From: Antedon mediterranea
Taxonomy: Eukaryota > Animalia > Echinodermata
Direction: 5' to 3'
DNA: 64,000 nt
NCBI RefSeq assembly: GCF_964355755.1
Contig: NC_092673.1
Coordinates: 17,295,648 to 17,359,647 of the forward strand
The translations under genes were made by a program, and so were the position numbers. The notes below the pieces were generated by a model. That model did no database searches. It was not told the origin of the DNA and was given only the letters and a program-made list of their open reading frames with translations. Below, piece by piece: positions 17,224 to 61,790 of this stretch; position 1 is the stretch's first letter, and each line of letters starts with the position of its first letter.

Positions 17224-17231
17224 ATGGAAAG
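17224..17231 (+). CDS. First coding exon portion (exon 17145-17231): ATG GAA AG|
   Basis: Acceptor TTTTCAG ending 17144; gaaATGG context; donor GTACGT at 17232; phase 2 matches the next exon. Confidence 0.65.
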
Positions 17232-20200
17232 GTACGTTTGTTTTTTATTTCAAATCCAACAAAAATAACTGTAACGGTTAAAAACAAATTAAAATGTTTG
17301 AATAGTTAGCAATACTTTAAAACTTTCTTAAAAGATTATGAAATCATAAATATTACAATTAAAGGGCTCATTCTCATCAAATATAATGATTATTTCCATC
17401 AATCATCATTTTCATAATATAATGTAATAATTCATTATTTCTTACATTTTAACAGGAACAAATTAGAAGAAGCTTTGTTGTACACGTGTGATTTGCAAAC
17501 AATTAAACACATTTGTAAGACGCAACCAGATCTTGTGAAATCTATCAATGAGGTATTTAAAACAAGATGTACATTATTTTTATAATATTATCAAATAAGA
17601 AATTTAATTAAAGTTTAAAATTATAGAGATTGTAATTTTCTTTATTATTTATTATAACATTTTTTTATATAATGAATTACAATTATTTTGCAATATCACA
17701 CTAATGATGTTGGTAAGACCTGCATGCACTGATTAACCACATTAGGCTAAAAATAATAATATAAATACACACTGATGATGGGGATAACCTGCATGTACTG
17801 ATTAACCACATTAGGCTAAAAATAATAATATAAATACACACTGATGATGGAGGTATAACCTGCATGTACTGATTAACAACATTATGCTAAAAATAATAAT
17901 ATAAATACACACTGATGATAGGGGTATAACCTGCATGCACTGATTAACCACATTAGGCTAAAAATAATAATATAAATACACACTGATGATGGAGGTATAA
18001 CCTGCATGTACTGATTAACCACTTTAGGCTAAAAATAATAATATAAATACACACTGATGATGGGGGTATAACATGCATGTACTGATTAACAACATTAGGC
18101 TAAAAATAATAATATAAATACACACTGATGATGGGGGTATAACCTGCATGCACTGATTAACAACATTAGGCTAAAAATAATAATATAAATACACACTGAT
18201 GATGGGGGTATAACCTGCATGTACTGATTAACCACATTAGGCTAAAAATAATAATATAAATACACACTGATGATGGGGGTATAACCTGCATGCACTGATT
18301 AACCACATTAGGCTAAAAATAATAATATAAATACACACTGATAATGGGGGTATAACCTGCATGTACTGATTAACCACATTAGGCTAAAAATTATAATATA
18401 AATACACACTGATGGGTATGGCAAGCCTCAGCTGTCTGCAGTATTCGAAATATTATATTATTATATCATTTTCACGCTACATCACAAGAGAGGACTCAAT
18501 CAGATATAAAGCAAGCAGCAATTTTAGGACTGAGAGACTGACGTTTTGCTAAAATGCATACTCGACTATAGTTTATAGGTCCCAGCTGCTGGACCCAAAA
18601 AACGTCTGGGAAAAGTGTCTATGAGGGCTCACGGTTGAACGATTTTGGATTCTTGCCCTTTGATTGGTTGACTTCAAGGCAAATGGTTTAACCTAAATTT
18701 GTTATCGTATCTAGCTTAACTTAATTATGATATTAATTTCATTGGGTGTTAAAAATCAGTACCAAAAGTATGTACCAACTTTCTCTTCCATTGAGTATAA
18801 ATTCTAGAAGTTGCACTTAATTTACTGAAATTTCTCATTACTTATATGTAAATTCATTAAACTGCTTATTGGCCTCATATTGTTAACATCTAAACATTTG
18901 TTTGTACAATTTTATGAAATATGTATTTTATTAATGTTCAAATTTTGTGATTGATATTGTACAGTAAGTAGATTTTAATGATTACTTACATTAAGTAATA
19001 GGCTAACAATCACTAGATCTGATCCATGGTAATATATTATATTTTGTTTTCATTTTATCAATAATGATAATTAGGATTTTATCACATTATTTAGCAGTAA
19101 TTGTTGTTGTTTGTATTTACAAAAAAAACCAATTTTACATAATGTCTGTTGTCAGTATTTATAAACTTCATTATGATTCCTTTCCAGAATGGGAACACGC
19201 CATTACATTCATATCTGGGGAGTGTATATACACCTACCTTAGAAATAGTGACATGTCTCATTCAGCATGGGACACCAGTAGCATTGCAAAATAAGGTAAT
19301 GTACAGGGATTTGCTAGTGTAATAGGCTAATATTCTAAAGATATGCTGTGGTAGACCATTCTATTTTGTTATACTCATTTATCAATAATGATAATTAGGA
19401 TTTTATCACATTATTTAGCAGTAATTGTTGTTGTTTGTATTAACAAAAAAACCCAATTTCACATAATGTCTGTTGTCAGTATTTATAAAACTTCATTATG
19501 ATTCCTTTCCAGGATGGTGAGACTCCATTACATTCATATCTGGGGAGTCTAAGCCTATATCCACTTCCCTTAGAAATAGTGACGTGTCTCATTCAGCATG
19601 GGGCACCATTAGCATTGCAAAATAAGGTAATGTACAGGGATTTGCTAGTGTAATAGGCTAACATTCTATAGATCTACTGAAGTAAACCATTCAATGAGAG
19701 AAAAAAGTAAGCACATTAACAAAAATCAAATTTGATTAAAACAAACCAAATAAAAAAATAACTAAATAGTTATATATGATTTATGATAACTGATTTAAAG
19801 TGTACAGCTACCTATCATATAACATAAATCTTTAATTTTCTTAATGAACAATTTTTTTTATATATTCAGTTATTAATAAACAATTATTGACAATGGTCTA
19901 ATTAATTGTAAATATGAAATAAAATGCGACAACTACTAAACAACTAAAAATGTTTATGTTAAAAAAATTAATAGAATCTGATTTTAATAAAAAATAATTA
20001 TTAATTAATAACCTACTCCCTCCCTTACCTTACAAAAAATGCTTCTGTCAGTCTATCCAGCTAATTATAAACATGGCCTTAAACTGCATCTGGAGATCTT
20101 TTTCCAACCTAGGATATTTTTGTGCAAACATTTTGCCACAAAAGGAAGAGAAATGTAAATAATATTTAGCCTTTAGTTAGTGGTTTCCAAAATTTAAAAT

Positions 20201-23200
20201 GTTTGAGCAATGCAATTTAAAAAAGAAAGCTAATATGAAATTATTCTGTTCAAACTGAATGCTTTAAGAACAGTTCCGTCTCTTATCTTATGACTTTTCG
20301 GGGAAAAATGACATTATTAAAGTTGCTATATAAAATTTGATACTAGTAAGTGTCAATAGATGGTTCTTAAATACATGACCTTTGATAAATAACTGAAAAT
20401 TGCACTGTACACAAGGCAAATAAATACAGATATGATGGAATTTATGTAGTCAAATATAATTTTCATCCTGAGAATTACCTTAATTTTGTTTATTGCATGG
20501 CATTGTTCACCAAATTCCTGTCTTGGTACAATTGATGATGGGATGGTATAAGGCTTCATGATATGATATGATCTTCATCGAGGCAAATGATAAATTTGTT
20601 TTGATCGTCAATATAGTACACTGGTTTTCATTAGGTGTTAAAAATTAGTACCGAAAGTATGTACCAACTTTCTCTACCATTGGGTTAAAATTCTAGAAGT
20701 TGAACTTAATTTACAGAAATTTCCCATTACGTAAATTTATATATAAATTCATTAAACTGCTTTGTGGCCTCATATTTTTAATATCTAAACATTTGTTTGT
20801 ACAATTTTATGAAATATTTATTTTATAACGTTCAAATTTTGTGATTGATATTGTACAGTAAGTAGATTTTAATGATTACTTACATTAAGTAATAGGCTAA
20901 CAATCACTAGATCTGATCCATGGTAATATATTATATTTTGTTTTCATTTATCAATAATGATAATTAGGATTTTATCACATTATTTAGCAGTAATTGTTGT
21001 TGTTTATATTAACAAAAAACCCAATTTTACATAATGTCTGTTGTCAGTATTTATAAACTTCATTATGATTCCTTTCCAGGATGGTGAGACTCCATTACAT
21101 TCATATCTGAGGAATGTATATAGAATACATAGCTTAGAAATAGTGACTTGTCTCATTCAGCATGGGACACCAGTAGCATTGCAAAATAAGGTAATGTACA
21201 GGAATTTGCTAGTGTAATAATAAGCTAACATTATATAGATATGCTGAAGTAAACCATTCTATGAGAGAAAAAAGTAAGCACATTAACAAAAATCAAATTT
21301 GATTAAAACAAACCAAATAAAAAAATAACTAAATAGTTATATATGATTTATGATAACTGATTTAAAGTGTACAGTTACCTATCATATAACATAAATCTTT
21401 AATTTTCTTAATGAACAAAAAAATCTATTTTTTTTTATATATTCAGTTATTAAATAACAATTATTGTCAACGGTCTAATTAATTGTAAATATGACGTAAA
21501 TACTAAACAAATAAAAATATTTATGTTAAAAAAATTAATAGAATCTGATTTTAATAAAAAATAATTATTAATTAATAACCTACTCCCTCCCTTACCTTAC
21601 AAAAAATGCTTCAGTCAGTGTATCCAGCTAATTATAAACATGGCCTTAAACTACATCTGGAGATCTTTTTCCAACCTAGGATCTTTTTATGCAAATATTT
21701 TGCCACAAAAGGAAGAGAAATGTAAATAATGTTTAGCCTTTTAGTTAGTGGTTTCCAAAATTTAAAATGTTTGAGCAATGCAATTTAAAAAAGAAAGCTA
21801 ATATGAAATTATTCTTTTCAAACTGAATGCTTTAAGAACAGTTCCGTCTCTTATCTTGTGACTTGTTGGGGAAAAATGACATTATTAAAGTTGCTATATA
21901 AAATGTGATACTAGTAGTGCCAATAGATGCTCCTTAAATACATGACCTTTGGTAAATAACTGAAAATTGTTTAAGTACAAAGCAAATAAATACATATATG
22001 TTGGAATTTATGTTGTCAAATATAATTGTCATCCTGAGAATTAACTTAATTTTGTTCATTACATGTTATTGTTCACCAAATTCCTGTCTTGGTACATTTT
22101 ATTATGAGATGGTATCAGACTTCATGATATGATTTTCATTAAGGCAAATGGTTTAAACTAAACTTGTTATCGTTAATATCGAACTTAGCCTAATTATGAT
22201 ATTGATTTCATTGGGTGTTAAAAATCAGTACCGAAAGTATTTACCAACTTTCTCTACCATTGAGTATAAATTCTAGAAGTTGCACTTAATTTACTGAAAT
22301 TTCCCATTACCTAAATTTATATGTAAATTCATTAAACTGCTTATTGGTCTCATATTGTTAACATCTAAACATGTATTTGTACAATTTTATGAAATATGTA
22401 TTTTATTAATGTTCAAATTTTGTGATTGATATTGTACAGTAAGTCGATTTTAATGATTACTTACATTAAGTAATAGGCTAACAATCACTAGATCTGATCC
22501 ATGGTAATATATTATATTTTGTTTTCATTTTATCAATAATGATAATTAGGATTTTATCACATTATTTTGCAGTAATTGTTGTTGTTTGTATTTACAAAAA
22601 AAAAACAATTTCACATAATGTCTGTTGTCAGTATTTATAAACTTCATTATGATTCCTTTCCAGTCTGGTGACACTCTATTACATTCATATCTGGGGAGTG
22701 GATATAAACCTACCTTAGAAATAGTGACGTGTCTCATTCAGCATGGGGTACCATTAGCATTGGAAAATAAGGTAAATGTACAGGAATTTGCTAGTGTAAT
22801 AGGCTAACATTATATAGATATGCTGAAGTAAACCATTCAATGAGAGAAAAAAGTAAGCACATTAACAAAAATCAAATTTGATTAAAACAAACCAAATAAA
22901 AATAGTTATATATGATTTATGATAACTGATTTAAAGTGTACAGTTACCTATCATATAACATAAATCTTTAATAATAATAAATGAAAACTTATATAGCGCC
23001 GGTATCCTCCACCCATGTGGCGCTCATGGCGCTTTGTGCATTAACAACGTGCGAGAACATCAGCGAATAGCGACGTCTTTAGGTTGGTCTTGAAACTGTT
23101 TAGACTAGTTGAGCATTTAACTGTTGCTGGTAAGCTGTTCCATACACTTGCGGCCGCAACGAAAAAAGATCTCTGACCCCACTGATTTTTCGCTCTACGC

Positions 23201-26200
23201 TCTTGAAGAAGGTTTTGTGACAATGATCGTAGGCCTCTGCGGGATGATTCGTAACGATCCACAAGGTCAGATAAATAAGCAGGAGCACTGTCATTTAGGA
23301 TCTTGAATACAAACAACGCAAGTTTGTACTTAATACGTTGTTGAACAGGCAACCAATGCAAATCCATCAGGACAGGAGTTATGTGAGCGTTTGATTTTGT
23401 ATAAGTTACAATTCTAGCTGCCATATTTTGCAAGCGCTGCAAACGTTGTATTTGAGATTTTGGTATGCCAAACAACAAGGCATTACCAATGTCAATTTTA
23501 GAAGTGACAAATGAGTGTACAATCAATTCAGCTGTTTTCTTGTTAAGATTACCGCGAATACGACCAAGGTTCCTAATCGATATGCATGCTGCTTTGGATA
23601 CAGTTGTTATTTGTGCTTCCATAGTGAGATTACTATCCAGCATGATTCCCAGATTCCGGACCACCGATGAGGGAGCGATGTTAGAGTTTCCGATTCTGAA
23701 ATGTGTGATGTTGATTTTGGAGATGTTACCTTTAGACCCGACGATAATAAACTCTGTCTTTCCATCATTCAACTTTAGGTAATTTGTTGTCATCCAATTG
23801 CGAACATCTTCTATACAGGCTTCCATCTTACTGATTGCTGCAGCAACATCCCTTTCCACTGGATTTACTGACACATAAATCTGTGTATCATCTGCATAGA
23901 AATGGAAATGTAGACTGTGTTTGCGAATAATGTCACCAAGGGGAAGCGTATAAATGGAAAACTGGCCAGGACCAATTACTGACCCCTGTGGTACACCATA
24001 TTCCAGGCAAGCTTCATCTGAGAATGCATCATTGATACAGACTAGCTGACGTCTTCCTGTAAGATATGACTGGAACCAGTTAAGAGCAACACCATTTATG
24101 CCAATGCGATTTCTCAGACGGGTTATCAGTCTTCGGTGATCAACTGTATCAAACGCTGCTGACAAATCCAACAACACCAATAGCGTTATTTTCCCATCAT
24201 TCATTCCTTGTAACAAATCATTCTGTACCTTTAAAAGGGAACTCTCCGTGCTATGACATGCACGATATGCCGACTGGTAATTCTCATTTAAATTATGCTT
24301 TTGAAGATATGGAGTAATGCGTGATGTCACTACACGCTCCAGAGTCTTTCCAAGAAAAGAAAGATTCGACACCGGGCGGTAATTTTTCAGCGTGTTATGA
24401 TCCAAGTTTTGCTTTTTTATTAAAGGACGAACGTGAGCAATTTTCAGTTCATCTGGCACTATGCCGGTATTAAGAGAATGGTTAATGATTTCCGTTATTA
24501 TTGGAACGACTGCGTCTATACACTTCTTCAGTATAGAAGTAGGAACTGGATCTAACCTGCATGATTTTGTTGGTGATTTCATCAGAATGTTGCGGATCTC
24601 ATCTTGAGATGCTGGTGTAAATGTTGTGAGATGCTGATGAACAGCTGTCACAGGCTCATTAAATGACATGTCATCAATCTTGAAGTCGTCTCTGATGAAA
24701 AACTGACAGAACCTGTTCGCAAGATCTAAGTCAGAAAGACTATCTGAGAGAGGTGATACCTGGCGATGATGAAGGAGTTGGTTAACAATTTTAAAAAGTC
24801 CTTTCTGATCTGCTGCATGTTCTTCACACAAGCCAATGTAGTAGTTGGCCTTTGCCTTTCTTACCATGGAATTTACATTCCTCTTCTGTGCAATGTAAGC
24901 TTGACGATCTATTTCCAGATGAGAGATTCTCCATTTCTTTTCAAGCTTACGCTTTGTTCTTTTCTCAGCATAGATGTCACTGTTATACCAACTAGTGTTT
25001 GGTCGGACCTTTACTGTTCTCTTTTTCGGTGGTGCGTGTTTGTCAAGAAGTTCACTCAAAGTGGTGACATATAGTCGTACTTTACTTGATAAATCAAGAT
25101 TTGAGAGCGAAGTTCCGAGATCAGACTGTGTGATATCTTTACATAATGTCTCAAAATTTATAGCATTCCAATGACGAGTTTCGATGGATTTAGTGATTAC
25201 GGGTGGCTTCTTGATAAGGAGATTACATGTGATTGCATAGTGATCTGATATACCATCAATGACATTAAGGTTTGAGAAAACAGGAGGATCAGATGAACGA
25301 GTGATCAGCAAGTCTAATGTATGACCATGTCGGTGTGTAGGTGTAGACACATGCTGTTGAAGACTGCTTGCTGCAAGTAGATTCCGAAAATGAATTGCAT
25401 CTGCATCATTTGGCATATCCACATGGATGTTAAAGTCTCCAACGAATAGTATGGGAGCCGGCTTCAATACATAGTGATCAACCAAAGTTGAGAATTCTTC
25501 AGTGAAAACATTTAGACTGCAACCCGTTGATTTGCTTTGAGGACGATATACTGCTACGAGGAAAACTGAGGATGCATTGCTGACTATTTCCACATTTAGC
25601 AGTTCAAATGATTTTGGTAATAATCCCGTGTCATAACATTTAACCGCTATGCTTTCCTTGTAAAGAAGTGCAACTCCACCACCTCTTTTAGTACTAGCAC
25701 GGGGAGCATGTTTGAGAGAGTATCCGTTGGGTGTAATATTTCCTATAACTGATGTGTCTTCTGGTTTAAGCCACGTTTCCGAAAGGGCAACAACATCCAG
25801 ATTATGTTCGATAACGAAATCCACAAATTCTGTTGTTTTGTTCCGAACGGATCTTGTATTAATACAGCAAAATGTAATATTGTTTTTAGATAAGAGAGAG
25901 TTTGATGATAAGTCCGGAAATGATAGATTGTTTTTAGTGTGTTTGTTTGTTTGTTTGTCACGCCCAGCTCTTGTACCACGCCTGGTTTTTCTTTTTGGCC
26001 TCCTTGGTAATAGGTGGATACTACAGCTACTGGAGTTCAACTTAAAAGATTGTATAATTAAGCAAGATTCTTCAGGAAGTTCACAACTGTTATTGTTGTT
26101 GGTTACACAGCCCTGTAAACCATGAAGAAACTCAGAGCTATAGCTAATTAGCATGACAACAGCAGATCTTCAAGCATGAGGTGTACAAGGTCATTTACAT

Positions 26201-50200: not shown

Positions 50201-53200
50201 TCCTGCTTACGAGTCTGTTATCCTTATTATAGGGAGTGGGGAGGAGTTGCTAGAACCATAAAACCCTCCTGCTTACGAGTCTGTTATCCTTATTATAGGG
50301 AGTGGGGAGGAGTTGCTAGAACCATAAAACCCTCCTGCTTATGAGTCTGTTATCTTTATTATAGGGAGTGGGGAGGAGTTGCTAGAACCATAAAACCCTC
50401 CTTCTTACGAGTCTGTTATCCTTATTATAGGGAGTGGGGAGGAGTTGCTAGACCATAAAACCCTCCTGCTTACGAGTCTGTTATCCTTATTATAGGGAGT
50501 GGGGAGGGGTTGCTAGACCATAAAACCCTCCTGCTTACGAGTCTGTTATCCTTATTATAGGGAGTGGGGAGGGGTTGCTAGACCATAAAACCCTCCTGCT
50601 TACGAGTCTGTTATCCTTATTATAGGGAGTGTGGAGGAGTTGCTAGAACCATAAAACCCTCCTGCTTACGAGTCTGTTATCCTTATTATAGGGAGTGGGG
50701 AGGGGTTGCTAGACCATAAAACCCTCCTGCTTACGAGTCTGTTATCCTTATTATAGGGAGTGGGGAGGGGTTGCTAGAACCATAAAACCCTCCTGCTTAC
50801 GAGTCTGTTATCCTTATTATAGGGAGTGGGGAGGGGTTGCTAGAACCATAAAACCCTCCTGCTTACGAGTCTGTTATCCTTATTATAGGGAGTGGGGAGG
50901 GTTTGCTAGACCATAAAACCCTCCTGCTTACGAGTCTGTTATCCTTATTATAGGGAGTGGGGAGGGTTTGCTAGACCATAAAACCCTCCTGCTTACGAGT
51001 CTGTTATCTTTATTATAGGGAGTGGGGAGGGGTTGCTAGAACCATAAAACCCTCCTGCTTACGAGTCTGTTATCCTTATTATAGGGAGTTGGGAGGGGTT
51101 GCTATAACCATAAAACCCTCCTGCTTACGAGTCTGTTATCCTTATTATAGGGAGTGTGGAGGGGTTGCTAGACCATAAAACCCTCCTGCTTACGAGTCTG
51201 TTATCCTTATTATAGGGAGTGGGGAGGAGTTGCTAGAACCATAAAACCCTCCTGCTTACGAGTCTGTTATCCTTATTATAGGGAGTGTGGAGGGGTTGCT
51301 AGAACCATAAAACCCTCCTGCTTACGAGTCTGTTATCCTTATTATAGGGAGTGTGGAGGGGTTGCTAGACCATAAAACCCTCCTGCTTACGAGTCTGTTA
51401 TCCTTATTATAGGGAGTGGGGAGGAGTTGCTAGAACCATAAAACCCTCCTGCTTACGAGTCTGTTATCCTTATTATAGGGAGTGGGGAGGGTTTGCTAGA
51501 ACCATAAAACCCTCCTGCTTACGAGTCTGTTATCATTATTATAGGGAGTGGGGAGGGTTTGCTAGAACCATAAAACCCTCCTGCTTACGAGTCTGTTATC
51601 CTTATTATAGGGAGTGGGGAGGGGTTGCTAGACCATAAAACCCTCCTGCTTACGAGTCTGTTATCCTTATTATAGGGAGTGTGGAGGGGTTGCTAGACCA
51701 TAAAACCCTCCTTCTTACGAGTCTGTTATCCTTATTATAGGGAGTGTGGAGGGGTTGCTAGACCATAAAACCCTCCTGCTTACGAGTCTGTTATCCTTAT
51801 TATAGGGAGTGGGGAGGGGTTGCTAGAACCATAAAACCCTCTTGCTTACGAGTCTGTTATCCTTATTATAGGGAGTGTGGAGGGGTTGCTAGACCATAAA
51901 ACCCTCCTGCTTACGAGTCTGTTATCCTTATTATAGGGAGTGGGGAGGGTTTGCTAGAACCATAAAACCCTCCTGCTTACGAGTCTGTTATCATTATTAT
52001 AGGGAGTGGGGAGGGTTTGCTAGAACCATAAAACCCTCCTGCTTACGAGTCTGTTATCCTTATTATAGGGAGTGGGGAGGGGTTGCTAGACCATAAAACC
52101 CTCCTGCTTACGAGTCTGTTATCCTTATTACAGGGAGTGTGGAGGGGTTGCTAGAACCATAAAACCCTCCTGCTTACGAGTCTGTTATCCTTATTATAGG
52201 GAGTGTGGAGGTGTTGCTAGACCATAAAACCCTCCTTCTTACGAGTCTGTTATCCTTATTATAGGGAGTGTGGAGGGGTTGCTAGACCATAAAACCCTCC
52301 TGCTTACGAGTCTGTTATCCTTATTATAGGGAGTGTGGAGGGGTTGCTAGACCATAAAACCCTCCTGCTTACGAGTCTGTTATCCTTATTATAGGGAGTG
52401 TGGAGGTGTTGCTAGACCATAAAACCCTCCTTCTTACGAGTCTGTTATCCTTATTATAGGGAGTGTGGAGGGGTTGCTAGACCATAAAACCCTTCTGCTT
52501 ACGAGTCTGTTATCCTTATTATAGGGAGTGGGGAGGGGTTGCTAGAACCATAAAACCCTCCTGCTTACGAGTCTGTTATCATTATTATAGGGAGTGGGGA
52601 GGGGTTGCTAGACCATAAAACCCTCCTGCTTACGAGTCTGTTATCCTTATTATAGGGAGTGGGGAGGTGTTGCTAGAACCATAAAACCCTCCTGCTTACG
52701 AGTCTGTTATCCTTATTATAGGGAGTGGGGAGGGTTTGCTAGAACCATACTTACTTACGAGTCTGTTATCCTTATTATAGGAAGTGGGGAGGGGTTGCTA
52801 GAACCATACTTACTTACGAGTCTGTTATCCTTATTATAGGAAGTGGGGAGGGGTTGCTAGAACCATACTTACTTACGAGTCTGTTATCCTTATTATAGGG
52901 AATGGGGAGGGTTTGCTAAAACTATAAAACCCTCCTGCTTATGAGTCTGTTATCTTTATTATAGTTTTACTAATGTGTACACATACATTTTTATTTTTAG
53001 CCAGAAAGAAAGCATACAGACATTTGTCAAAGGTAATTTTCTTAATCTTATGTTGGTGAGTTAAGGATCATAAATGAATTTACTTTTTATTTTATTTCAC
53101 CACCACACAAGTCAAGTCAGTTACAACGTTGAACAATAGAAAATGATCAATAGACATTTATTTAAACATATATAACTCAATCAAAATATCTTATGTCTTA

Positions 53201-56200
53201 AGCTGCTATTAGCTTTGATATCTTAATTCCTCTTACCAGTAGTAGTACTATCAGAATCATTATTGATAATCTATACATTGTTACAACATGCTGCTACTAG
53301 CTGTGATATCTTCATTCCTCTTACCAGTAGTAGTACTATCAGAATCATTATTGATAATCTATACATTGTTACAACATGCTGTTATTAGCTGTGATATCTT
53401 CATTCCTCTTACCAGTAGTAGTACTATCAGAATCATTATTGATAATCTATACATTGTTACAACATGCTGCTATTAACTGTGATATCTTTATTCCTCTTAC
53501 CATTAGTAGTACTATCAGAATCATTATTGATAATCTATACATTGTTACAACATGCTGCTATTTAGCTGTGATATCTTCATTCCTCTTACCAGTAGTAGTA
53601 CTATCAGAATCATTATTGATAATCTATACATTGTTACAACATGCTGCTATTAACTGTGATATCTTTATTCCTCTTACCATTAGTAGTACTATCAGAATCA
53701 TTATTGATAATCTATACATTGTTACAACATGCTGCTATTAACTGTGATATCTTTATTCCTCTTAGCAGTAGTAGTACTAGCAAAATCATTATTGATAAAC
53801 TATACATTGTTACAACATGCTGCTATTAGCTGTGATATCTTCATTCCTCTTACCAGTAGTAGTACTATCAGAATCATTATTGATTATCTATACATTGTTA
53901 CAACATGCTGCTATTAGCTGTGATATCTTCATTCCTCTTACCAGTAGTAGTACTATCAGAATCATTATTGATTATCTATACATTGTTACAACATGCTGCT
54001 ATTAGCTGTGATATCTTCATTCCTCTTACCAGTAGTAGTACTATCAGAATCATTATTGATAATCTATACATTGTTACAACATGCTGCTATTAGCTGTGAT
54101 ATCTTCATTCCTCTTACCAGTAGTAGTACTATCAGAATCATTATTGATAATCTATACATTTTTACAACATGCTGTTATTAGCTGTGATATCTTCATTCCT
54201 CTTCCAGTAGTAGTACTAGCAGAATCATTATTGATAATCTATACATTGTTACAACATGCTGCTATTTGTTACAACATGCTGCTATTAGCTGTGATATCTT
54301 CAATCCTCTAAACCAGTAGTAGTACTATCAGAATCATTATTGATAATCTATACATTGTTACAACAAGCGGCTATTAGCTGTGATATCTTCAATCCTCTTA
54401 CCAGTAGTAGTACTAGCAGAACCATTGATAATAGCTGTGACATCTTGTAAAGTGGATAAATATTTTTTATTTTATTTGCAGACGAAAGTTTGCCAAAAGA
54501 AAGGAGAGGAAGAAAAACGGATCAAGGTAATTGATTGAAATATGTTGGTAAATAAGTAGAGAGAGAGAGAAAATAAAAACAAATTTAATATTTACAACAT
54601 CTCAAACTGGTTTTGATTAGAATTGGGGGAAACATCTCTTGGTATCTTTATTTCATTTTAATCCTTAACCATAAAACATACAAAACAAATAAAAATCCAT
54701 AGCAGCCAAAAAAGCTGAATTAGGGATTTGTTACAAAGGCCAAATTTTTACAAATTATAAATTTCACATATTTTTTTTCAAATAAATATTATAAATATTA
54801 AACAATTTAAAAATTACACATAAAAGCAAGCAAAAGGCACAAAGAAGCGTTTTGCTAAGAAAAAAAACATGTAAAGTCATTGTTATTTAAGAATTAAGCA
54901 GACAAGTTAGATATAGAAGAAGCGGTCATTTATTATATCTGGATAATGAGACACCAAATTGTCCATATAATGCATTTTATCATATTTTAACTTTTAATCG
55001 CTTTTTAAAGATTTTGTGCAATAATGTGTGTGTTCTATATTTTAATTTTTTGTTTTTTATCGTACTAATATTTGCCAATCTTTAAGAAGAATTTCTATTG
55101 TTATTTTATTATGATAATGGACAAATAAAGCTTTTCAACATTTCATTAATTTTTCATTTGCAGGAAATACAATGGCAGATTCTGAAACTTTGAACAGTTT
55201 CCGAGACCTAAAAGGTGGTCTCAGTGGGTACTTTGATGGTGAAAGATACCATTGGCTGAGGTTCCTACTATTTGATCAATTGGATGTCGGGGACCTTACA
55301 AATAAAGATTTCAATGGACATGACTTACTCAATACACTTGAAGACAAAGGTTTCATCTCAACAACCAATGTTAACTTGCTGTTAGAGATTACAAATACAT
55401 CTGAAATCCAACAGGCCAAAGATCTTGTATCAAAGTATATGACAGACAACAACATTCAGAATAGACATACTGGTAAAGCTAAGTTGTCACCTTACAGAAA
55501 GCGACTGTTCAAGGCCCTGAGACAAGTTGACTCAGATGCATTACGTAATGTTACTGCTTACTATAAATTGACAAAATATAACTTCTCCAATGTATGGGAT
55601 GCAGTTCTCTATCTGGAGAATGATAAACAATTAGTAGATGATTTTGACAAAATACAGAGGTTTGCAGAACGTCTTGGTGGAATAGCAAGGAACATACTAC
55701 TTGGTAATGGTATTTAATATTCTTACAAAACTATTCCAAAGTTAATTGTAATGTAACTCATGTAATTCATATCTTTCATTTGTTTTAAAATTTTACATGA
55801 TTTAATTTCAATCATTGTTTATATACTATACAAGTTGATAACGTATTGATTATTTTATTTATTAACTGATTATGTAGTCAGTCAATAGTGGGAAGAAAGA
55901 GACTGAATATGACAAGATAGTGATAATAAAGACATTGCAATACTAATATAGGATAATGTCATAAACACAAAAATATGTTGATGAAGAATTTGGAATTTTG
56001 TAATTTGGAAAACTGATTATAGATATAGAAAATGTAACTCAAAATTGTGTTTGAAAATTGTAAATACTGGACTAACTAACAACAACAACAACCCCCCCCC
56101 CCCCCCGCCCCACTTTTGGCTGGCTGACCCCTCCCCTGGGGGTAATCTATAAGAAATTTAGAAAAATGAAGCTGCTAGGTCTCCGGAAATTGCACTTATA

Positions 56201-59200
56201 CATTGATATGATACAAAATTACCATGGTTGGGGTTGTTGGGGGTGAGCTAAGAAAATTTTGAAAATTAGAGCTGTTAGGTCCCCGGAAACTCTATGGTTG
56301 GGTCTGAGCTAAGACAATTTTGAAAACTAGAGCTGCAGCTCTACAAAAATTACACTCATACATTGAAAATGGTGGAGGGAAAATTTGAAAATGTGAAAAA
56401 TTCATATTATTAAATTATCTGTTTTAAAAACAAATTCACTGAAATAAATGTAAATGTTTGTGTATATTAAATGATAAATAAGTTATTGCCATCGGTCACA
56501 ATTTAAATTCCCATGTTATTAAAATAATACTAATGACAATGGCAGTAAAATAAGAAATAATTGATTATACTTACTTGGATAAAACATGCAAAATTGTATT
56601 ATTTCACAAGATTCCAAAAAAAACCCTACTTTTTTTCACAGATGTGCAAGATGGTTCAGTGACCTCTGCATTACCACAGTCTGATATCCAAGGCAGTCAA
56701 CAAGGTATGATCCACTGGTTAATTCCAGAGGTTAATCATCTAAGTGGTTACATTTTGAAATAAAACTTAAAAGACATATAATATAACTGTAGCACATTTT
56801 GAGTTATTCAAACTGTATACATTTTAGATGAAAATGTATAGTTATGTTACTCTCCAAAATGAACATAAAATGTATAGTTATGTTACTCTCCAAAATGAAC
56901 ATAAAATGATGAACATAAACAGTCATTTATTTGTGTGTCACTCGTACAAAATAAAAAGCTTTGTCATTAATTTGTAATGTATAACTAACTGTCTTTTTTG
57001 TATTTTTGTTGAACAGAATTAACAAAGCTATTAGCATCAGATTCACCAGTTACTGTTAATGAGAAATTAAAAACACAAATGAAGAAAGTGATGATTGAGG
57101 AACAGGAAAGAAAACTTGAAGCAGAGAGCGGTGAGTTAAGGATCATAAATTAATTTACTTTTTATTTTATTTCGTCACCACTTAACAGTGACACAAGTCA
57201 AGTCAATTACAAAGTTCAACAATAGAAAATGATGAACATATTTAAACATAATTATATAAACAAAATCCAAAGCAATCTTAAGCTGGCCTTCAATATACTG
57301 TTTAACGTATACTAACAATAAATGTCTTTTCTGGATGTTTTTATTGACCAGAAGTGACAAAGCAATTTCCATCGGATTCATCAGATACTCTTAGTGATGA
57401 ATTTCAAACACAAGTAGTGGAACAGGAAACTAAACCTGAACCAGAGAGTGGTGAGTCTCATAAAATATTAGTTGTATTATTATGGTTAAACTAACTTTAA
57501 ATGTGATGTTATAGAATGGATTTTAGCTACATTTTTTTTTTATTTCAACATTTATAAAAAAAAGAATGTCTTTAAACAGAATTAGAAAAAAATGCTAAAT
57601 TCATACATTTAAACGGTTGATAAGGTAAATGACTTATTTAACTAATCTTTAAAACAACATGTCTTTTATTATTTAGTCAAGAATAAAAGCTGATACACTG
57701 AACAATATCTGCATAAATACTGTCATGATATTTATATATAAGTTGCTGTGACACTTACAGGCCACCGTACTTTGATCACACAAACAAAACATATTCATTA
57801 TGGTCGGCAATGTATTATCAGGGAAGAGTTAAATTACAATTTAACTCAATTGTAATTTAACTCTTCCCTGGTATTATCAACAAACTTAAAAATAAGAGAT
57901 AGTCCTCTATCCATTGTAAATAGAACAGTTTATATTTCATCAAAGAACGTATTGTTAATCAATCATATTTTGATATGCTTGCTCTATAAAATTCAACATA
58001 TCTGCATAAATACTGTCATATTTATATATAAGTTGCTGTGACACTTACAGGCCACCGTACTTTGATCACACAAACAAAACATATTCATTTAATGGTCAGC
58101 AATGTATTATCAACAAACTTAAAAATACGAGATAGTTCTCTATCCATTGTAAATAGAACATCAAAGAACATATTGTTATCTTAATCTATAAATTCAACAA
58201 CAGATTAATTATGATTGGTCAAAGCTCTCTGTGAAGCTGTCAACATCTTGAAATTAGCATGCAACATACAAATACATTGCAAAATAATAACAAATTGATA
58301 TTAATAATCAAATTAGGGTGTGGTACATTGTGTAGGTCTATGGTACAGGGCTCAGGTGGCAGGTTTTTACTTTACTTGCCAACTAATGTTTATTTTTTTC
58401 TTGTATCAATTTTCTAGTTTTTTATTGTAATATGGTCCCCTAATGCTATTTTTTTGTAATATATTTATAGACCATAAATCAATTTTTAAAAATGAGGTTC
58501 TGCACATTGAATTTATGGTTTTCAGGCCCGTAGCCAGGGGGGTTTTTTGGGTTTGGGCGAACCCCCCCTTTTGCGCGAACCCCCCTTTTACCAGCGAACC
58601 CCCCCTTGAAAAACAAAGGCCCCACTTCCAAAATCGTGCAATTAATTATCAATTATATCAGATTTTTTAGTCATTTTACTTCTATTGACTATGTTTAAAT
58701 CGATCGAATATACAGATTGTCCGATGTCAAAGTCGCTGCTGAGCGTGAGATCGAGAGAGATGATGATTATAAATATGACAGAAAAATGGACTGACCAATC
58801 GCGTGCTTCGGCCGGGCTTTTCGGAACGCACAAGATCACGTTCAGTTCAGTTCAATCTTTTTGGGGATTTTTATTTTTTTCCTGGAAATATTTTTCATTA
58901 AACCAAAGAATTTCACTGTGTAAACTTGAATAAAAATGGTGCTGAGTTAAATTGGTACGTGTACGTAGGCCTACCGTATATTTCGGTGTATAAGACGCAC
59001 TTTTGACACGCAAATTTGACCTCTAAATGTTACCCTAATTAATTTAATTACCTACTAATATTTAAATTAATTAAAAATAGTGTACTACTCTGCAATGTAG
59101 GCCTAGCTAGTTACTCACTCCTGTCTAACCACAGTGTGATAACAAGTTTATTGAATTTTTAGTTAAGGTAAATTGTCATCCTCAACTGTATTAATTAATA

Positions 59201-61605
59201 ATATTACAGTACGCATTAGATATTCTACCCAGGCCTAGTAATACTCTCTGAACTCGCGGGTGTGTATTCTAGCAGCATGCAGCATCACAGCGCAACACAT
59301 TTATGGAAGAGTCCATTAATTACGGTGGTGTCACATTTTAATTACACAATACCGGTAACTATTTCCCTTGATCACGGTGGTTTATTTTTATTACATCTCT
59401 ATGTCAACAATCACATAATTTTATAATCATGTAGGCAATAGTTCGTATGTCAAGCGATATCTAAAAGAGTGTGTTGTTATTGTGTTAAGTAGCTTCCCCT
59501 AATCTCATAGTGTATATGGCCAACAGTGCTGGCCACCAGGCAAGGAGCACATGGTTAGTGCTCTCCTCTCCTCATATTGCTGTAATGCATGCATGGAAAT
59601 AGGAAAGATTTTCATATAGGCCTACCCAACATGATATTCCTGGTTCATTATCAGCCCAAAAAACTGAACATCATTTGGATTGATTTTATAATGGTCATAC
59701 ACACAATAAGAAGGTATATATTTAAATAATATGAAATTAAAGTTACTTAAATAGACATAGGCTAGCCCTACTCACACAGTGCATCGTAACTGAAACAATA
59801 TGGGGATTTCCCTTTTCATTGAACGTTCAGTTGAAGTAGAGACTGATTACAATGTAATAAAGGCAATCAAACAAAATTATATCATTTGATTATAATAAAT
59901 ATGTCTCAAATATCGTTGTTTTATTATTAAAATACCATTGAAATAAGTGCGTCTTATGCATCGACTACATAAAAAATACTAATATTTCAGTCTCCGTTTT
60001 ATGGGTGCGTCTTATACACAGGTGCGACTTGTACACCGAAATATACGGTACTATTTGTTTTTTATGTTTATAGGATAAGAAATTATTTAAGGGCCTAATA
60101 TAATATACTTTTTTGCAACAATAAAGCTGTATTTCATGATCAGTACTACTAACTTCCATAATACTGTACTATATAATTTCTCTGCATAACTCAGATTTTA
60201 GTAGGTAAAAAATGTCTCTGTAAGCTTATTAAAACAACCGAAATTTCTCTGAGAGCCAAAGCTTCCAGGGGCCTTCGCCCCCTGGACCCCGACCGGGGGC
60301 CCTTGGCGGCCCCCTGGCCCCCAGCCTACAGTTGCTCGCTGCGCTCGCAAAATACTTGGTGTCAAGAAAACCCCCCTCTGATGCATTCTGGCTACGGGCC
60401 TGGTTTTGTGATTGATTGTGTTGAGTAATGAATAATCAAATGCTTGTGATATTTAATTCTTAATACTGATACTCATTTCAGATCTGCAGTCGCCAGAAAA
60501 TGACAGGTAAGTAGTACTGTATAATGAGTGTATCACAGTATCTATACTGTTTATTTATACTCTCCAATACCATAGAGTTAGACCAACTAACTAGTTATTA
60601 ATTGTATGCCCTGAGATGATAGTCTGGAAGGGATATTATTACTATCACTTGTGTGTCTATCAGTTTATTTGTATATATTAATAACATACCATGTTAATAC
60701 AACCAAAGTTCAACCATAAAAATAGTGTTGAAACAATCCTGGTTTTATATAGAATTACATTCTGCATAAACTTAACGGTGGATGACGGCCCTTTTGTCCT
60801 ACCAATATTTTCAATTTCAGTAAGATACATTGCTCCTGGTTTTATATTCTCCCGTATAATACAAAGATAACTAAACTTTGATGTATATGTGTTGCTTTCT
60901 GCACTAAAATATATTTAAAAAAAGCTCAAAACACATACAAATTTATGATATTTAAGTCATAATTTATTGATCCCCTTATTGAAGGGGATTCTTTTCATAT
61001 AGCCATCATGGTACCAATTGCTCCTTGCATTTCCTGATTTTGATAATAATACTGTAAAAAAAGGGTGGGGGGGGGGGAACCCTCCTGCTTACGAGTCTGT
61101 TATCTTTAATATAGGGAGTGGGGAGGGGTTGCTAGAACCATACTTACTTACGAGTCTGTTATCTTTATTATAGTTTTACTAATGTGTACTTATACATTTT
61201 TATTTCTAGCCTGAAAGAAAGCATACAGACATTTGTCAAAGGTAATTTCCTTAGTCTTATGTTGAAACCGAATAAAATAAAATCAAGTCATGAGTCTTAA
61301 AAAATTGAAATGAGGCAAATCAAAGAAATGTATTTTTTTTCACTTTTAAAACTATAAACAAAATAATTATCAATAACAAAAATAATTAAGTTCCAACAAA
61401 TATAAAAGTTGTAATTGTAGATTTTAATTTTGAAATGTAATAAACACAAATAAAATATAATGAAAGAACTGTAAAATCTTGAAAGCTCACAACAAATTTA
61501 AGGTGTTTAAATCAATTTTTTTTTTCACTTTTTCTTTCAGAGAACTGTGGCTTGATAATTTGTTGTATTGTAGTTGTGATATTGGCATATATTTGGGCTT
61601 TATGA
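17224..61605 (+). CDS. Multi-exon gene (about 26 coding exons, about 950 aa): variable ankyrin repeats - low-complexity linkers - tandem DED-like domains - C-terminal TM anchor
   Basis: Manual splice model; every exon has GT-AG boundaries and matching phases from ATG 17224 to TGA 61603-61605; AATAAA at 61785. That the ANK and DED halves share one transcript is inferred from phase compatibility only. Confidence 0.72.
17456..17552 (+). CDS. Ankyrin N-cap exon (RNKLEEALLYTCDLQTIKHICKTQPDLVKSINE)
   Basis: TTTTAACAG| acceptor, GAG|GTATTT donor; ends in phase 0 into the ANK exons; degenerate ankyrin helix pattern. Confidence 0.75.
17697..18415. repeat. 71-bp intronic minisatellite, about 10 copies
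   Basis: Unit CACACTGATGATGGGGGTATAACCTGCATGTACTGATTAACCACATTAGGCTAAAAATAATAATATAAATA. Confidence 0.95.
19188..19295 (+). CDS. ANK exon A1: NGNTPLHSYLGSVYTPTLEIVTCLIQHGTPVALQNK
   Basis: TTTCCAG| ... AAG|GTAATG; 108 nt, phase 0-0; G-x-TPLH...LEIV..L...G ankyrin consensus. Confidence 0.88.
19513..19626 (+). CDS. ANK exon A2: DGETPLHSYLGSLSLYPLPLEIVTCLIQHGAPLALQNK
   Basis: 114 nt, phase 0-0, canonical splice sites. Confidence 0.88.
21080..21190 (+). CDS. ANK exon A3: DGETPLHSYLRNVYRIHSLEIVTCLIQHGTPVALQNK
   Basis: 111 nt, phase 0-0, canonical splice sites. Confidence 0.88.
22664..22771 (+). CDS. ANK exon A4: SGDTLLHSYLGSGYKPTLEIVTCLIQHGVPLALENK
   Basis: 108 nt, phase 0-0; partly visible in ORF 22625-22807. 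Confidence 0.88.
22971..26535 (-). mobile_element. Near full-length L2-clade LINE inserted antisense in an ANK intron
   Basis: Interrupts the array unit at AAATCTTTA|AGTTTCTTAATG; (TAT)n tail and AAGCGCC...GGCGCTATATAA 3' stem-loop on the minus strand. Confidence 0.88.
23041..26154 (-). CDS. L2-type endonuclease-reverse transcriptase, 1037 aa, uninterrupted
   Basis: SETWL, GGGV, GDFN, SDH; YRPVSNL, DLSAAFD, GVPQGS, YADD; C-terminal HITPVL..LHWLPV..RI.YK typical of L2. Confidence 0.92.
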   Translation of the reverse strand: MLISYSSEFLHGLQGCVTNNNNSCELPEESCLIIQSFKLNSSSCSIHLLPRRPKRKTRRGTRAGRDKQTNKHTKNNLSFPDLSSNSLLSKNNITFCCINTRSVRNKTTEFVDFVIEHNLDVVALSETWLKPEDTSVIGNITPNGYSLKHAPRASTKRGGGVALLYKESIAVKCYDTGLLPKSFELLNVEIVSNASSVFLVAVYRPQSKSTGCSLNVFTEEFSTLVDHYVLKPAPILFVGDFNIHVDMPNDADAIHFRNLLAASSLQQHVSTPTHRHGHTLDLLITRSSDPPVFSNLNVIDGISDHYAITCNLLIKKPPVITKSIETRHWNAINFETLCKDITQSDLGTSLSNLDLSSKVRLYVTTLSELLDKHAPPKKRTVKVRPNTSWYNSDIYAEKRTKRKLEKKWRISHLEIDRQAYIAQKRNVNSMVRKAKANYYIGLCEEHAADQKGLFKIVNQLLHHRQVSPLSDSLSDLDLANRFCQFFIRDDFKIDDMSFNEPVTAVHQHLTTFTPASQDEIRNILMKSPTKSCRLDPVPTSILKKCIDAVVPIITEIINHSLNTGIVPDELKIAHVRPLIKKQNLDHNTLKNYRPVSNLSFLGKTLERVVTSRITPYLQKHNLNENYQSAYRACHSTESSLLKVQNDLLQGMNDGKITLLVLLDLSAAFDTVDHRRLITRLRNRIGINGVALNWFQSYLTGRRQLVCINDAFSDEACLEYGVPQGSVIGPGQFSIYTLPLGDIIRKHSLHFHFYADDTQIYVSVNPVERDVAAAISKMEACIEDVRNWMTTNYLKLNDGKTEFIIVGSKGNISKINITHFRIGNSNIAPSSVVRNLGIMLDSNLTMEAQITTVSKAACISIRNLGRIRGNLNKKTAELIVHSFVTSKIDIGNALLFGIPKSQIQRLQRLQNMAARIVTYTKSNAHITPVLMDLHWLPVQQRIKYKLALFVFKILNDSAPAYLSDLVDRYESSRRGLRSLSQNLLQERRAKNQWGQRSFFVAAASVWNSLPATVKCSTSLNSFKTNLKTSLFADVLARC
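27768..27875 (+). CDS. ANK exon A5: NDDTLLHSYLSSVYPPTLEIVTCLIQHGTQVALQNK
   Basis: 108 nt, phase 0-0, canonical splice sites. Confidence 0.86.
28833..28843 (+). pseudogene. Truncated ANK exon remnant (DGDT only)
   Basis: Intact acceptor TTTTCAG|GATGGTGACAC, then an abrupt jump to intronic AGATCTGATC; the rest of the exon and its donor are deleted. Confidence 0.8.
28995..29105 (+). CDS. ANK exon A6: YGDTPLHPYLRSGYTAPTLEIVTCLIQHGAPVALKNK
   Basis: 111 nt, phase 0-0; partly visible in ORF 28953-29135. Confidence 0.88.
29821..30912. mobile_element. Non-autonomous TIR element, hAT5-like, with a nested inverted-repeat element at 30222-30536
   Basis: TIR CAGGCCCGTATCCAG / CTGCATACGGGCCTG (14/15); flanks GAATG/GAATA; sibling array units show the empty site. 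Inner IR ATCCATGGACGCCATTC(G/C)GGCGGACA. Confidence 0.8.
31643..31753 (+). CDS. ANK exon A7 (nucleotide-identical to A3)
   Basis: 111 nt, phase 0-0; same sequence as 21080-21190. Confidence 0.88.
32412..35569 (+). mobile_element. 5'-truncated CR1-group LINE in sense orientation within an ANK intron
   Basis: Frame open from 32412 (GVAIYL..., mid-APE) to stop 35117; GDFN, SDHFP, DLSKAFD, GVPQGS, FADD; 3' AATAAA + (GAAAC)n tail; interrupts the unit at CTTATG|ACTTTTTTGG. Confidence 0.9.
36343..36447 (+). CDS. ANK exon A8: SGDTPLHSYLRSGYATLSIVTCLIQHGSQVALQKK
   Basis: 105 nt, phase 0-0, canonical splice sites. Confidence 0.87.
37372..37456 (+). CDS. Ankyrin C-cap exon (DGNTPVSLLESNRLISDQRKTEILNFLE)
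   Basis: TTTTAATAG| acceptor, G|GTAAGT donor; phase 0-1; GNTP...EIL.FL capping-repeat pattern. Confidence 0.85.
38501..38542 (-). ncRNA. Candidate minimal type-I hammerhead ribozyme (Penelope-like)
   Basis: Minus strand: tctc-CTGACGA-c-gatcaa(agaata)ttgatt-GAAA-CG-TC-gaga, with stem I, stem II and a palindromic ACGT in place of stem III. Confidence 0.45.
38826..40404. mobile_element. Non-autonomous hAT element
   Basis: TIR CAGTGG(G/T)GGCGCCAG; perfect 8-bp TSD GTCCACAG (38818-38825, 40405-40412); subterminal CCCCGACGGGGGG repeats at both ends. Confidence 0.88.
42985..43530 (-). pseudogene. Degraded LINE RT fragment with a 69-bp tandem repeat of motif B (about 4.4 copies, 42985-43292)
   Basis: Minus-strand translation gives ACSLDASKAFD and repeated NGVRQGGVMSPLLYNIYI. 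Confidence 0.8.
43530..44253 (+). mobile_element. 3' fragment of an L1/Tx1-clade LINE (zf-RVT region + poly-A tail)
   Basis: ORF 43534-44079 with FKFIHRI..TN..L...C.FC....ET..H.FFEC......W; AATAAA and A-rich tail at 44222-44253. Confidence 0.82.
44685..44703 (+). CDS. 19-nt micro-exon (GDVETS)
   Basis: TTATAG| acceptor, AAG|GTATCA donor; phase 1-2 is what is needed to enter the Gly/Ser frame of the next exon. Confidence 0.55.
44842..44950 (-). pseudogene. 5S rRNA-derived sequence (pseudogene or SINE3 head; body may extend to about 44725)
   Basis: Reverse complement GGCC..CACGTTGAAACACTGGTTTTCTTGTCTGATCACCAAAGTTAAGCAA...CTTGGATGGGAGACC...GGAATATCAGTGCTGTA follows the 5S rRNA consensus, with CpG-type transitions. 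Confidence 0.8.
45130..45599 (+). CDS. Gly/Ser-rich linker exon with an 18-bp coding repeat, (G/S-A/T-G-V-S-S) about 23 times
   Basis: TTTTTAG| acceptor, CAAG|GTAATA donor; 470 nt = phase 2-1; no frameshifting indels in the repeat. Confidence 0.75.
46825..46869 (+). CDS. Acidic linker exon (DEQDDTETTTQENEQ)
   Basis: TTCACAG| acceptor, CAAG|GTACAG donor; 45 nt, phase 1-1. Confidence 0.7.
47019..47129 (+). CDS. Linker exon (VTKQLTSDSQSTVNEESQSQMKKGMIEEQETKLEEES); acceptor uncertain
   Basis: Paralog of 57017-57130; the homologous CAG acceptor is CAA here; in-frame AGs lie at 47017-18 and 47038-39; donor G|GTGAGT intact. Confidence 0.5.
47346..47438 (+). CDS. Linker exon (EVTKQSDSSDTLSDEFQTQVVEQEIEPEPKS)
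   Basis: ACCAG| acceptor, G|GTGAGT donor; 93 nt, phase 1-1. Confidence 0.75.
47787..47838. mobile_element. 52-bp palindromic mini-MITE (second copy 57819-57870)
   Basis: CAGGGAAGAGTTAAATTACAAT...ATTGTAATTTAACTCTTCCCTG flanked by GTATTAT repeats; empty site at about 58104. Confidence 0.7.
48555..48579 (+). CDS. Micro-exon (DLQSPEND)
   Basis: TTTCAG| acceptor, CAG|GTAAG donor; 25 nt, phase 1-2; identical paralog at 60482. Confidence 0.75.
49228..52963. repeat. 65-66-bp intronic minisatellite, about 57 copies
   Basis: Unit GGGAGTGGGGAGGG(G/T)TTGCTAGA(A)CCATAAAACCCTCCTGCTTACGAGTCTGTTATCCTTATTATA. Confidence 0.97.
53001..53032 (+). CDS. Micro-exon (SQKESIQTFVK)
   Basis: TTTTTAG| acceptor, AAG|GTAATT donor; 32 nt, phase 2-1; paralog at 61210. 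Confidence 0.72.
53200..54440. repeat. 88-bp intronic minisatellite, about 14 copies
   Basis: Repeated ...GCTGTGATATCTTCATTCCTCTTACCAGTAGTAGTACTATCAGAATCATTATTGATAATCTATACATTGTTACAACAT...; the ORF track recurs every 88 nt. Confidence 0.95.
54482..54526 (+). CDS. Basic linker exon (DESLPKERRGRKTDQ)
   Basis: TTTGCAG| acceptor, CAAG|GTAATT donor; 45 nt, phase 1-1. Confidence 0.72.
55164..55703 (+). CDS. Exon encoding tandem death-effector-like domains
   Basis: TTTGCAG| acceptor; donor at 55704 or 55710, both phase 1. DED1-like FRDL...LS..F..E....LRFLL.D.L....DLL..LE..G.IS..N..LL.E; DED2-like SPYRK.LF.....D.D.L......D....LE....L. Recognised by eye, no HMM run. Confidence 0.75.
56642..56704 (+). 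CDS. Linker exon (DVQDGSVTSALPQSDIQGSQQ)
   Basis: TTTTCACAG| acceptor, CAAG|GTATGA donor; 63 nt, phase 1-1. Confidence 0.75.
57017..57130 (+). CDS. Linker exon (ELTKLLASDSPVTVNEKLKTQMKKVMIEEQERKLEAES)
   Basis: GAACAG| acceptor, G|GTGAGT donor; 114 nt, phase 1-1. Confidence 0.75.
57352..57450 (+). CDS. Linker exon (EVTKQFPSDSSDTLSDEFQTQVVEQETKPEPES)
   Basis: 99 nt, phase 1-1; differs from the 47346 paralog by an in-frame 6-nt indel. Confidence 0.78.
58523..60402. mobile_element. Non-autonomous TIR element with 5-bp TSD, hAT5-like
   Basis: Perfect 15-bp TIR CAGGCCCGTAGCCAG; TSD GTTTT; absent from duplication copy 1. Confidence 0.85.
58974..60048. mobile_element. Nested Tc1/mariner-superfamily (Tc2/pogo-like) non-autonomous element
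   Basis: TA-flanked TIRs CCGTATATTTCGGTGTA(T/C)AAG(A/T)CGCAC; extra GTGCGTCTTAT subterminal repeats at the right end. Confidence 0.8.
60482..60506 (+). CDS. Micro-exon (DLQSPEND), copy 2
   Basis: TTTCAG| acceptor, CAG|GTAAGT donor; phase 1-2. Confidence 0.75.
61210..61241 (+). CDS. Micro-exon (SLKESIQTFVK), copy 2
   Basis: TTTCTAG| acceptor, AAG|GTAATT donor; phase 2-1. Confidence 0.72.
61541..61605 (+). CDS. Terminal exon: ENCGLIICCIVVVILAYIWAL-stop (tail-anchor TM helix)
   Basis: Long polypyrimidine acceptor TTTTTCTTTCAG|; phase 1 gives a hydrophobic run of about 18 aa, then TGA. Confidence 0.7.
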
Positions 61606-61784
61606 TGTTTATAGAGGATATATTGTTATGCAGATAAAAATGTCTATTTTTTCAATGATGGGATTCTATCTTAGTACCACAAATAGTATAGACTGTTTCA
61701 CTGCACACCAGGCCATATGAATACCTGAAGAAATCTGAGTTATGTTGTAAACCACTTTGATACAGATAGATTATTACATACCAC

Positions 61785-61790
61785 AATAAA
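61785..61790 (+). terminator. Candidate polyadenylation signal AATAAA
   Basis: About 180 nt downstream of the predicted stop codon. Confidence 0.4.

Follow-up and report, generated by a model that had tools for sequence, protein, structure and literature searches.

Gene Model and Splice Sites

The window analyzed here (the whole stretch of 64,000 nucleotides of the crinoid Antedon mediterranea, with positions counted from its first letter) contains a chain of 26 exons leading from an ATG at 17224 to a TGA at 61605 (Table 1). Rebuilt from the window sequence, the chain comprises 2826 nt coding for 941 aa without internal stops, and all 25 introns are GT-AG, in agreement with the preliminary description, made from the letters alone, of about 26 such exons in one frame. 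None of the 25 donors falls below the 93rd percentile of the GT sites of the window, the one of the ankyrin C-cap (exon 11) reaching the 100th, and 18 of the 25 acceptors lie above the 85th percentile. The weak acceptors are those of exons 13, 15 (23rd percentile), 16, 17, 18, 23, and 24, of which the last two are used in a RefSeq model. Both splice sites of exon 19 are above the 99th percentile.

Table 1. Exons of the gene model and associated features, with positions in the window
Feature	Position	Strand	Remarks
Exon 1, coding part (ATG)	17224–17231	+	Acceptor at 17145; start shared with paralogs P0088, P0091, P0094
Exon 2, ankyrin N-cap	17456–17552	+	70–85% identity to paralog N-termini
Exon 3, ANK1	19188–19295	+	Pfam Ank scan
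Exon 4, ANK2	19513–19626	+	Pfam Ank scan
Exon 5, ANK3	21080–21190	+	Identical to ANK7
Exon 6, ANK4	22664–22771	+	
Exon 7, ANK5	27768–27875	+	
Truncated ANK unit, outside the model	28794–28843 (copy at 28833)	+	Acceptor and a few bases only
Exon 8, ANK6	28995–29105	+	Pfam Ank scan
Exon 9, ANK7	31643–31753	+	Identical to ANK3
Exon 10, ANK8	36343–36447	+	
Exon 11, ankyrin C-cap	37372–37456	+	82% identity to P0089 residues 76–103; phase-1 donor, leading to the Roc region in paralogs
Exon 12, 30-nt linker (weak support)	44685–44714	+	Splice scores; resembles, by eye only, a post-COR linker motif of six paralogs
Exon 13, Gly/Ser-rich 18-nt repeat (weak support)	45159–45599	+	
Exon 14, diverged copy of exon 21	46825–46869	+	
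Exon 15, copy of exon 22	47019–47129	+	Homologous acceptor AG missing; in-frame AG 3 nt further on
Exon 16, copy of exon 23	47346–47438	+	
Exon 17, identical to exon 24	48555–48579	+	
Exon 18, copy of exon 25	53001–53032	+	
Rearrangement point, copy of the start of intron 15	53054–53205	+	96% identity to 47128–47279; at this point the downstream block continues to its terminal exon
Exon 19, linker	54482–54526	+	Between COR and DED exon in Roc-COR paralogs
Exon 20, tandem DED	55164–55703	+	Contains the Met where RefSeq begins its 309-aa protein
Exon 21, linker	56642–56704	+	Identical in P0016 and P0002
Exon 22, acidic linker	57017–57130	+	RefSeq protein match
Exon 23, acidic linker	57352–57450	+	RefSeq protein match
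Exon 24, micro-exon	60482–60506	+	RefSeq protein match
Exon 25, micro-exon	61210–61241	+	RefSeq protein match
Exon 26, terminal hydrophobic helix and stop	61541–61605	+	AATAAA at 61785

The RefSeq protein XP_071949161.1 (309 aa, uncharacterized, A. mediterranea) matches residues 633–941 of the model letter for letter, so the junctions of exons 20–26 agree with an independent annotation. RefSeq gives this half, from the death-effector domains (DED) to the tail, as a separate protein starting at a Met inside exon 20, without extending it to the in-frame Mets of exon 15. For the ankyrin half, no identical record was found among 15 proteins drawn from 7,910 candidates. Hence, the gene, first presented as hidden, deserves the term for its ankyrin half, whereas the other half was already in RefSeq.

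The exon chain is more than a product of chance, because exons 20–26 reproduce the RefSeq protein exactly and paralogous proteins span the junctions between exons 1 and 2, between ankyrin and C-cap exons, and between exons 19 and 20. As evidence for a single transcript, the conservation of the frame is weak, since the modules share splice phase 1 (exons 12–16 and 19–23 are all phase 1-1) and unrelated modules would also chain. No significant homolog was found for exon 12 or exon 13. A candidate exon with a good acceptor at 46046–46079 (+) was left out because splicing it in shifts the frame, and a stretch bounded by AG and GT at 13991–14039 (+), noticed by eye, may be a 5′ untranslated exon.

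The Ankyrin Array

The array contains eight full ankyrin exons of 105–114 nt in phase 0 and one truncated copy. Pfam Ank matches occur in all three of the exons scanned (one above the curated cut-off), and paralog P0087, used as a proxy for the array of the window, is predicted to fold as a capped ankyrin stack (TM ~0.8 to DARPins). The repeat motif is thus present by Pfam and the capped stack by proxy, in agreement with the ankyrin repeats of the preliminary description. Each repeat corresponds to one phase-0 exon within a duplicated unit of ~0.3–2 kb, i.e., one same-phase exon per repeat, tandemly duplicated, as is typical of brown-algal ROCO genes. The duplicated units differ by 5–20% and carry different insertions, which argues against a simple duplication in the assembly.

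All eight exons are open, have lengths that are multiples of three, and share 18 invariant columns, with the changes sitting at hairpin positions and in a variable-length loop between helices. Over the seven distinct copies, and uncorrected for gene conversion between units, pN is 0.136 against a pS of 0.080 (0.31 against 0.14 in the loop), but this excess is not significant (26 versus 7 distinct variants, Fisher p = 1.0; against introns, p = 0.39), and significant positive selection on the ankyrin exons is not supported. Exon divergence in the array (0.124) is not lower than intron divergence (0.075–0.099). At the six positions that we take to be those randomized in DARPin libraries, four are variable, versus 3 of the 28 others (p = 0.01, with a threshold set post hoc). 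As far as sequences can tell, this variation fits a variable, likely binding face on a conserved scaffold, which falls short of proof of selection. Further downstream, 6 of the 12 variants in exon 13 are synonymous (p = 0.18), and a coding bias in this exon is rejected.

LINE-type ORFs occupy two introns of the array (23041–26169, −, 1042 aa; 32388–35117, +, 909 aa) and the region 1129–4068 (−, 979 aa), all three encoding reverse transcriptase, and a LINE fragment lies at 43498–44079 (+). Minisatellites are found at 8200–12122, 15699–17068, 17692–18414, 49328–52964, and 53202–54426, with units of 89, 31, 71, 66, and 88 bp, respectively; the one with 66-bp units has a short counterpart at ~61060–61170 in the duplicated block described below. 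In intron 23, a stretch of 1.9 kb (~58507–60405) that is missing from the upstream duplicate and shows very high read depth is likely a non-autonomous transposon.

The Predicted Tandem DED Exon

The fold predicted for exon 20, using 31 sequences, consists of two packed DEDs (pLDDT 95.6). The best Foldseek matches are the tandem DEDs of caspase-8, over the full length of the exon (TM ~0.7). In a wide structure search, caspase-8 (Z 14.9, rmsd 2.8, 157 aligned residues) ranks ahead of vFLIP, FADD, PEA-15, pyrin, and CARD domains; structures of cFLIP and vFLIP match at Z 11–12.6, and DED matches at Z 12–14.9 contrast with CARD matches at Z ≤ 7.7. In sequence, Pfam identifies only the first DED, below its cut-off, and the match to the caspase-8/cFLIP/vFLIP type is weak (E = 0.0046). 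The ESM Atlas returned DED clusters (0.92), the first of which may be the one of the protein itself. The two death-fold-like domains initially suspected at these positions can therefore be specified as a tandem DED at the level of the predicted fold.

The C-terminal 309 aa contain no Pfam family at 1e-4, caspase and pseudo-caspase domains included, and the remainder of the 941-aa model is made of ankyrin repeats and low-complexity linker. A complex prediction of the DED exon with the prodomain of a crinoid caspase (P0074) scored 0.00, which speaks neither for nor against binding.

The Tail and the Duplicated Five-Exon Block

The last 19 residues form the most hydrophobic 19-residue window of the protein (2.89) and its sole strongly hydrophobic stretch. 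Because the best N-terminal window reaches only 0.17, no signal peptide is apparent, so the earlier proposal of a terminal hydrophobic helix without signal peptide stands. Hydropathy predicts a tail-anchored protein, which would face the cytosol. The helix ends the protein and is followed by no basic residues, a lack that may point away from mitochondria. A search with the tail found one relative, P0002, among 286 candidates.

Exons 14–18 are a duplicate of exons 21–25, located upstream of the RefSeq start, and keep the frame. Exons 14–16 are 18, 3, and 6 nt shorter than exons 21–23, respectively; of the 18 intron gaps in the block, by comparison, only 4 are multiples of three. Since the 3-nt difference depends on the acceptor chosen, only two of the frame-keeping events are independent (~0.05, by our own arithmetic). 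The upstream block has no terminal exon of its own, the copy of intron 15 starting 21 bases after exon 18, and no second copy of the terminal region is present in the window.

Probable Origin within a Roco Cluster

Roco proteins are defined, in the available text of PMC11378527, by the Roc-COR tandem domain. Searching with the DED exon identified 13 close relatives among 624 candidates, all from A. mediterranea and all on the same 36.19-Mb contig, 8 of which carry Roc and/or COR. The paralog P0002 has Roc-COR in front and exons 19–23 in common with the window. A profile built from seven ankyrin exons of the window matched 15 proteins (of the same 7,910 candidates), and Roc is present in three of the six that are from Antedon. 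P0094 begins like exons 1–2, the same C-cap leads into Roc in P0089, and identity between the ankyrin exons of the window and those of a Roc-bearing paralog reaches 90%. A quick tree of 92 DED modules from 73 proteins (excluding modules shorter than 130 aa, three weak long matches, and isoforms) places the module of the window as sister to that of P0002 (support 86), within a clade of 11 modules (support 95), 8 of them labeled Roc-COR, 2 of these by similarity and not by Pfam.

No remnant of Roc-COR was found in the window, either by tblastn with 12 paralog cores (best E = 0.21) or with a Roc-COR profile against 3,438 pieces of the window (best E = 2.5); in a control, 16 of 16 pieces of 30 aa were recovered. 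The product lacks the defining tandem domain and is not a Roco protein, and the homology of its flanking modules to Roco members points to descent, not membership. Because both halves resemble Roco paralogs and no Roc-COR remnant is detectable, the locus is likely a derivative of the Roco cluster without the Roc-COR GTPase, judging from these sequence comparisons, and an unrelated new family is rejected. The preliminary description recognized no named family in this architecture and overlooked the likely Roco-cluster origin of both halves. Housekeeping proteins of the ankyrin-death type, such as ankyrin, ANKDD1, p105, and DAPK1, are absent from the 15 ankyrin and 13 DED matches, and this identity is rejected.

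Among provisional annotation models, the one of P0094 apparently joins ankyrins and terminal hydrophobic helices to two Roc-COR units, and the one of P0015 has four tandem-DED modules followed by Roc. A metagenome scan gave one weak locus among 178 stretches.

Comparison with Known Systems

The closest counterparts are ankyrin-Roc-COR proteins of Antedon (XP_071947615.1, XP_071948802.1, and XP_071948758.1) and of amphioxus. Common features are the N-cap, ankyrin, and C-cap exons, the linker exons, the tandem-DED exon, and, for the Antedon paralogs, the contig, and some paralogs have C-terminal hydrophobic helices. The window gene differs by the absence of Roc and COR, by its eight repeats, and by another terminal exon. 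With caspase-8, cFLIP, and vFLIP it shares the predicted tandem-DED fold over the whole of exon 20, but identity is 14–20%, there is no caspase domain, the DEDs are internal, and there is a membrane tail. MAVS combines a death-fold domain, a long low-complexity linker, and a C-terminal anchor. The window gene resembles it in having a death fold, a low-complexity linker, and, by hydropathy, a single C-terminal helix without signal peptide; it differs by DEDs in place of a CARD, by the lack of basic residues after the helix, and by a repeat domain of its own, and the likeness does not establish homology.

Brown-algal ROCO genes provide a more distant parallel. In the accessible parts of PMC11378527 and PMC4104024, they are described as clustered genes with one LRR per exon and as candidate immune receptors. 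The window gene shares with them the clustering, the single repeat per same-phase exon, exon duplication, and stray repeat exons, as well as a transmembrane-like C-terminus, found in some of the algal proteins, and the proposed role as a variable immune receptor (PMC11378527, PMC4104024, same parts). It differs in that it belongs to an animal, has ankyrin instead of LRR repeats in phase 0 instead of 2, carries a tandem DED and no GTPase, and shows no significant excess of pN over pS.

In oysters and cnidarians, expanded DED proteins combine DEDs with variable ankyrin, NTPase, PARP, or transmembrane parts, as stated in the sections of PMC8195603 consulted. The window gene is unlike these forms, in which TRADD-N is present and, in the oyster, the N-terminal part is extracellular; no protein ordered as ankyrin, tandem DED, and tail anchor appears in those sections. 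Trichoplax has an ROCO expansion with death folds, Aplysia has TIR proteins with ROCO domains, and flatworms have caspases with an ankyrin prodomain (partial texts among PMC11378527, PMC4104024, PMC9334734, PMC8195603, PMC11463336, PMC9611651, and PMC8229355). A literature search, covering mostly papers outside subscription journals, found no description of the crinoid cluster, of a mobile tandem-DED exon in crinoids, or of this domain order, though architecture supplements such as that of PMC8195603 could contain one.

A Possible Single Transcript, Its Putative Function, and Alternatives

On balance, we lean toward exons 1–26 being one transcript. It is rather unlikely that the locus instead comprises two adjoining units, i.e., an ankyrin-only gene or fragment (exons 1–11) and a 309-aa tail-anchored tandem-DED adaptor starting in exon 20. 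Such a division would agree with the separate annotation of XP_071949161.1, with the Met lying early in exon 20, and with the N-terminal position of 52 of the 92 related modules, which indicates that the DED exon often starts a gene. It would also agree with the stop found, with an AATAAA nearby, two codons beyond the C-cap donor when reading through into intron 11, with the ankyrin-only annotation of paralogs P0087, P0088, and P0091, with the 7.2 kb of transposon-rich DNA after exon 11, and with the poor support for exons 12 and 13. Yet, the RefSeq models of this cluster look fragmentary, several beginning or ending inside Roc or COR, frame and splice sites are preserved through exons 14–19 ahead of the RefSeq start, and the donor of the C-cap reaches the 100th percentile. 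In favor of one gene, the duplicated block of exons 14–18 also ends without a terminal exon, and exon 19, the linker between COR and DED in paralogs, has very strong splice sites. As a point against the single-gene reading, no ankyrin family occurs in the best five families listed per protein among the DED-exon relatives scanned. Over 54430–61760, no splice joint was seen among the 15 listed of 73 joints from four of five sequencing runs, none of the five being listed as RNA; in run X1, presumably RNA, 3 of 30 bins lack cover, all of them intronic, but contigs also span intron-like sequence, and these data weigh on neither side.

DEDs recruit other DEDs, which is established death-fold biology (PMC8195603, in part). 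Tentatively, the locus may be a single spliced Roco-derived gene that dispenses with the GTPase and combines a ligand-binding ankyrin stack, a tail anchor, and a tandem DED recruiting DED-bearing immune proteins. In such a protein, the variable ankyrin stack would bind the ligand, binding would cluster the protein on the membrane in place of GTPase-driven dimerization, and the clustered tandem DED could nucleate an assembly with one of the crinoid proteins of caspase, TIR, or NLR type carrying the same module. The relatives of the DED module offer such candidates. There are 72 matches, 69 of them scanned together and 2 more separately; considering the best five families per protein, the 69 include NACHT (8), Roc or COR (4), kinase (3), ZU5 (3), and NHL (2) domains, and one each of caspase, TIR, PARP14-type, and VLIG-type GTPase. 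In crinoids the module is thus widely shared, which supplies candidate partners among NLRs and kinases as well as a caspase, XP_071950579.1, and a TIR protein, XP_071950587.1. Among 30 DED-module proteins whose species was looked up, 27 are from Antedon and 3 from Anneissia. The innate-immune or cell-death role put forward from the letters alone fits the company kept by the DED module, though the description missed the likely origin from a Roco cluster and the absence of the GTPase. It is unlikely that the locus belongs to an exon-shuffled ankyrin receptor repertoire of crinoids, an animal equivalent of the brown-algal LRR-ROCO system, in which a variable, alternatively spliced sensor is joined directly to a membrane-anchored tandem DED, bypasses the GTPase, and enters a genome-wide network of NLR, kinase, TIR, and caspase proteins built on a mobile DED exon.

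A single gene might also act as a brake, competing with full Roco paralogs for ligand and capping or sequestering DED assemblies at a membrane, as cFLIP and viral FLIPs do. We find this improbable. No catalytic domain was seen, the cFLIP and vFLIP structures do match, the ankyrin exons come close to those of a Roc-bearing paralog, and inhibitory pairing of paralogs is general in apoptosis (PMC8195603, available part); however, eight repeats, versus two to three of this type in the Antedon paralogs examined, suggest a specificity of its own, and the fold matches to caspase-8 score above those to FLIPs, though fold does not show function. We give equally little credence to a young rearrangement product of an unstable tandem cluster, unexpressed or decaying, with part of the array possibly an assembly error, where the frame would be intact because the duplications are recent. 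The identity of ANK3 and ANK7, the exon divergence not lower than that of introns, the two long LINE frames within the array, the truncated ankyrin copy, and the altered acceptor of exon 15 are all compatible with such decay. But 26 exons carry no stop or frameshift, length differences among the ankyrin exons are all multiples of three, as opposed to 4 of the 18 intron gaps in the duplicated block, the core columns of the repeats do not vary, and the distance between units is hard to reconcile with simple assembly duplication.

If exons 1–26 are one transcript, the gene provides a natural deletion test of Roc-COR in repeat-sensor Roco proteins, with sensor, death-fold output, and anchor retained and the GTPase switch lost. 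With two separate halves, the locus would be no more than a common piece of an immune cluster that evolves fast. For crinoid immunity, the locus points to a cluster of ankyrin-exon receptors and to a tandem-DED exon that is mobile. Among the relatives P0015–P0084, the tandem-DED module is also fused to TRIM-like NHL, ZU5-UPA, and ubiquitin domains, which is perhaps a larger story.
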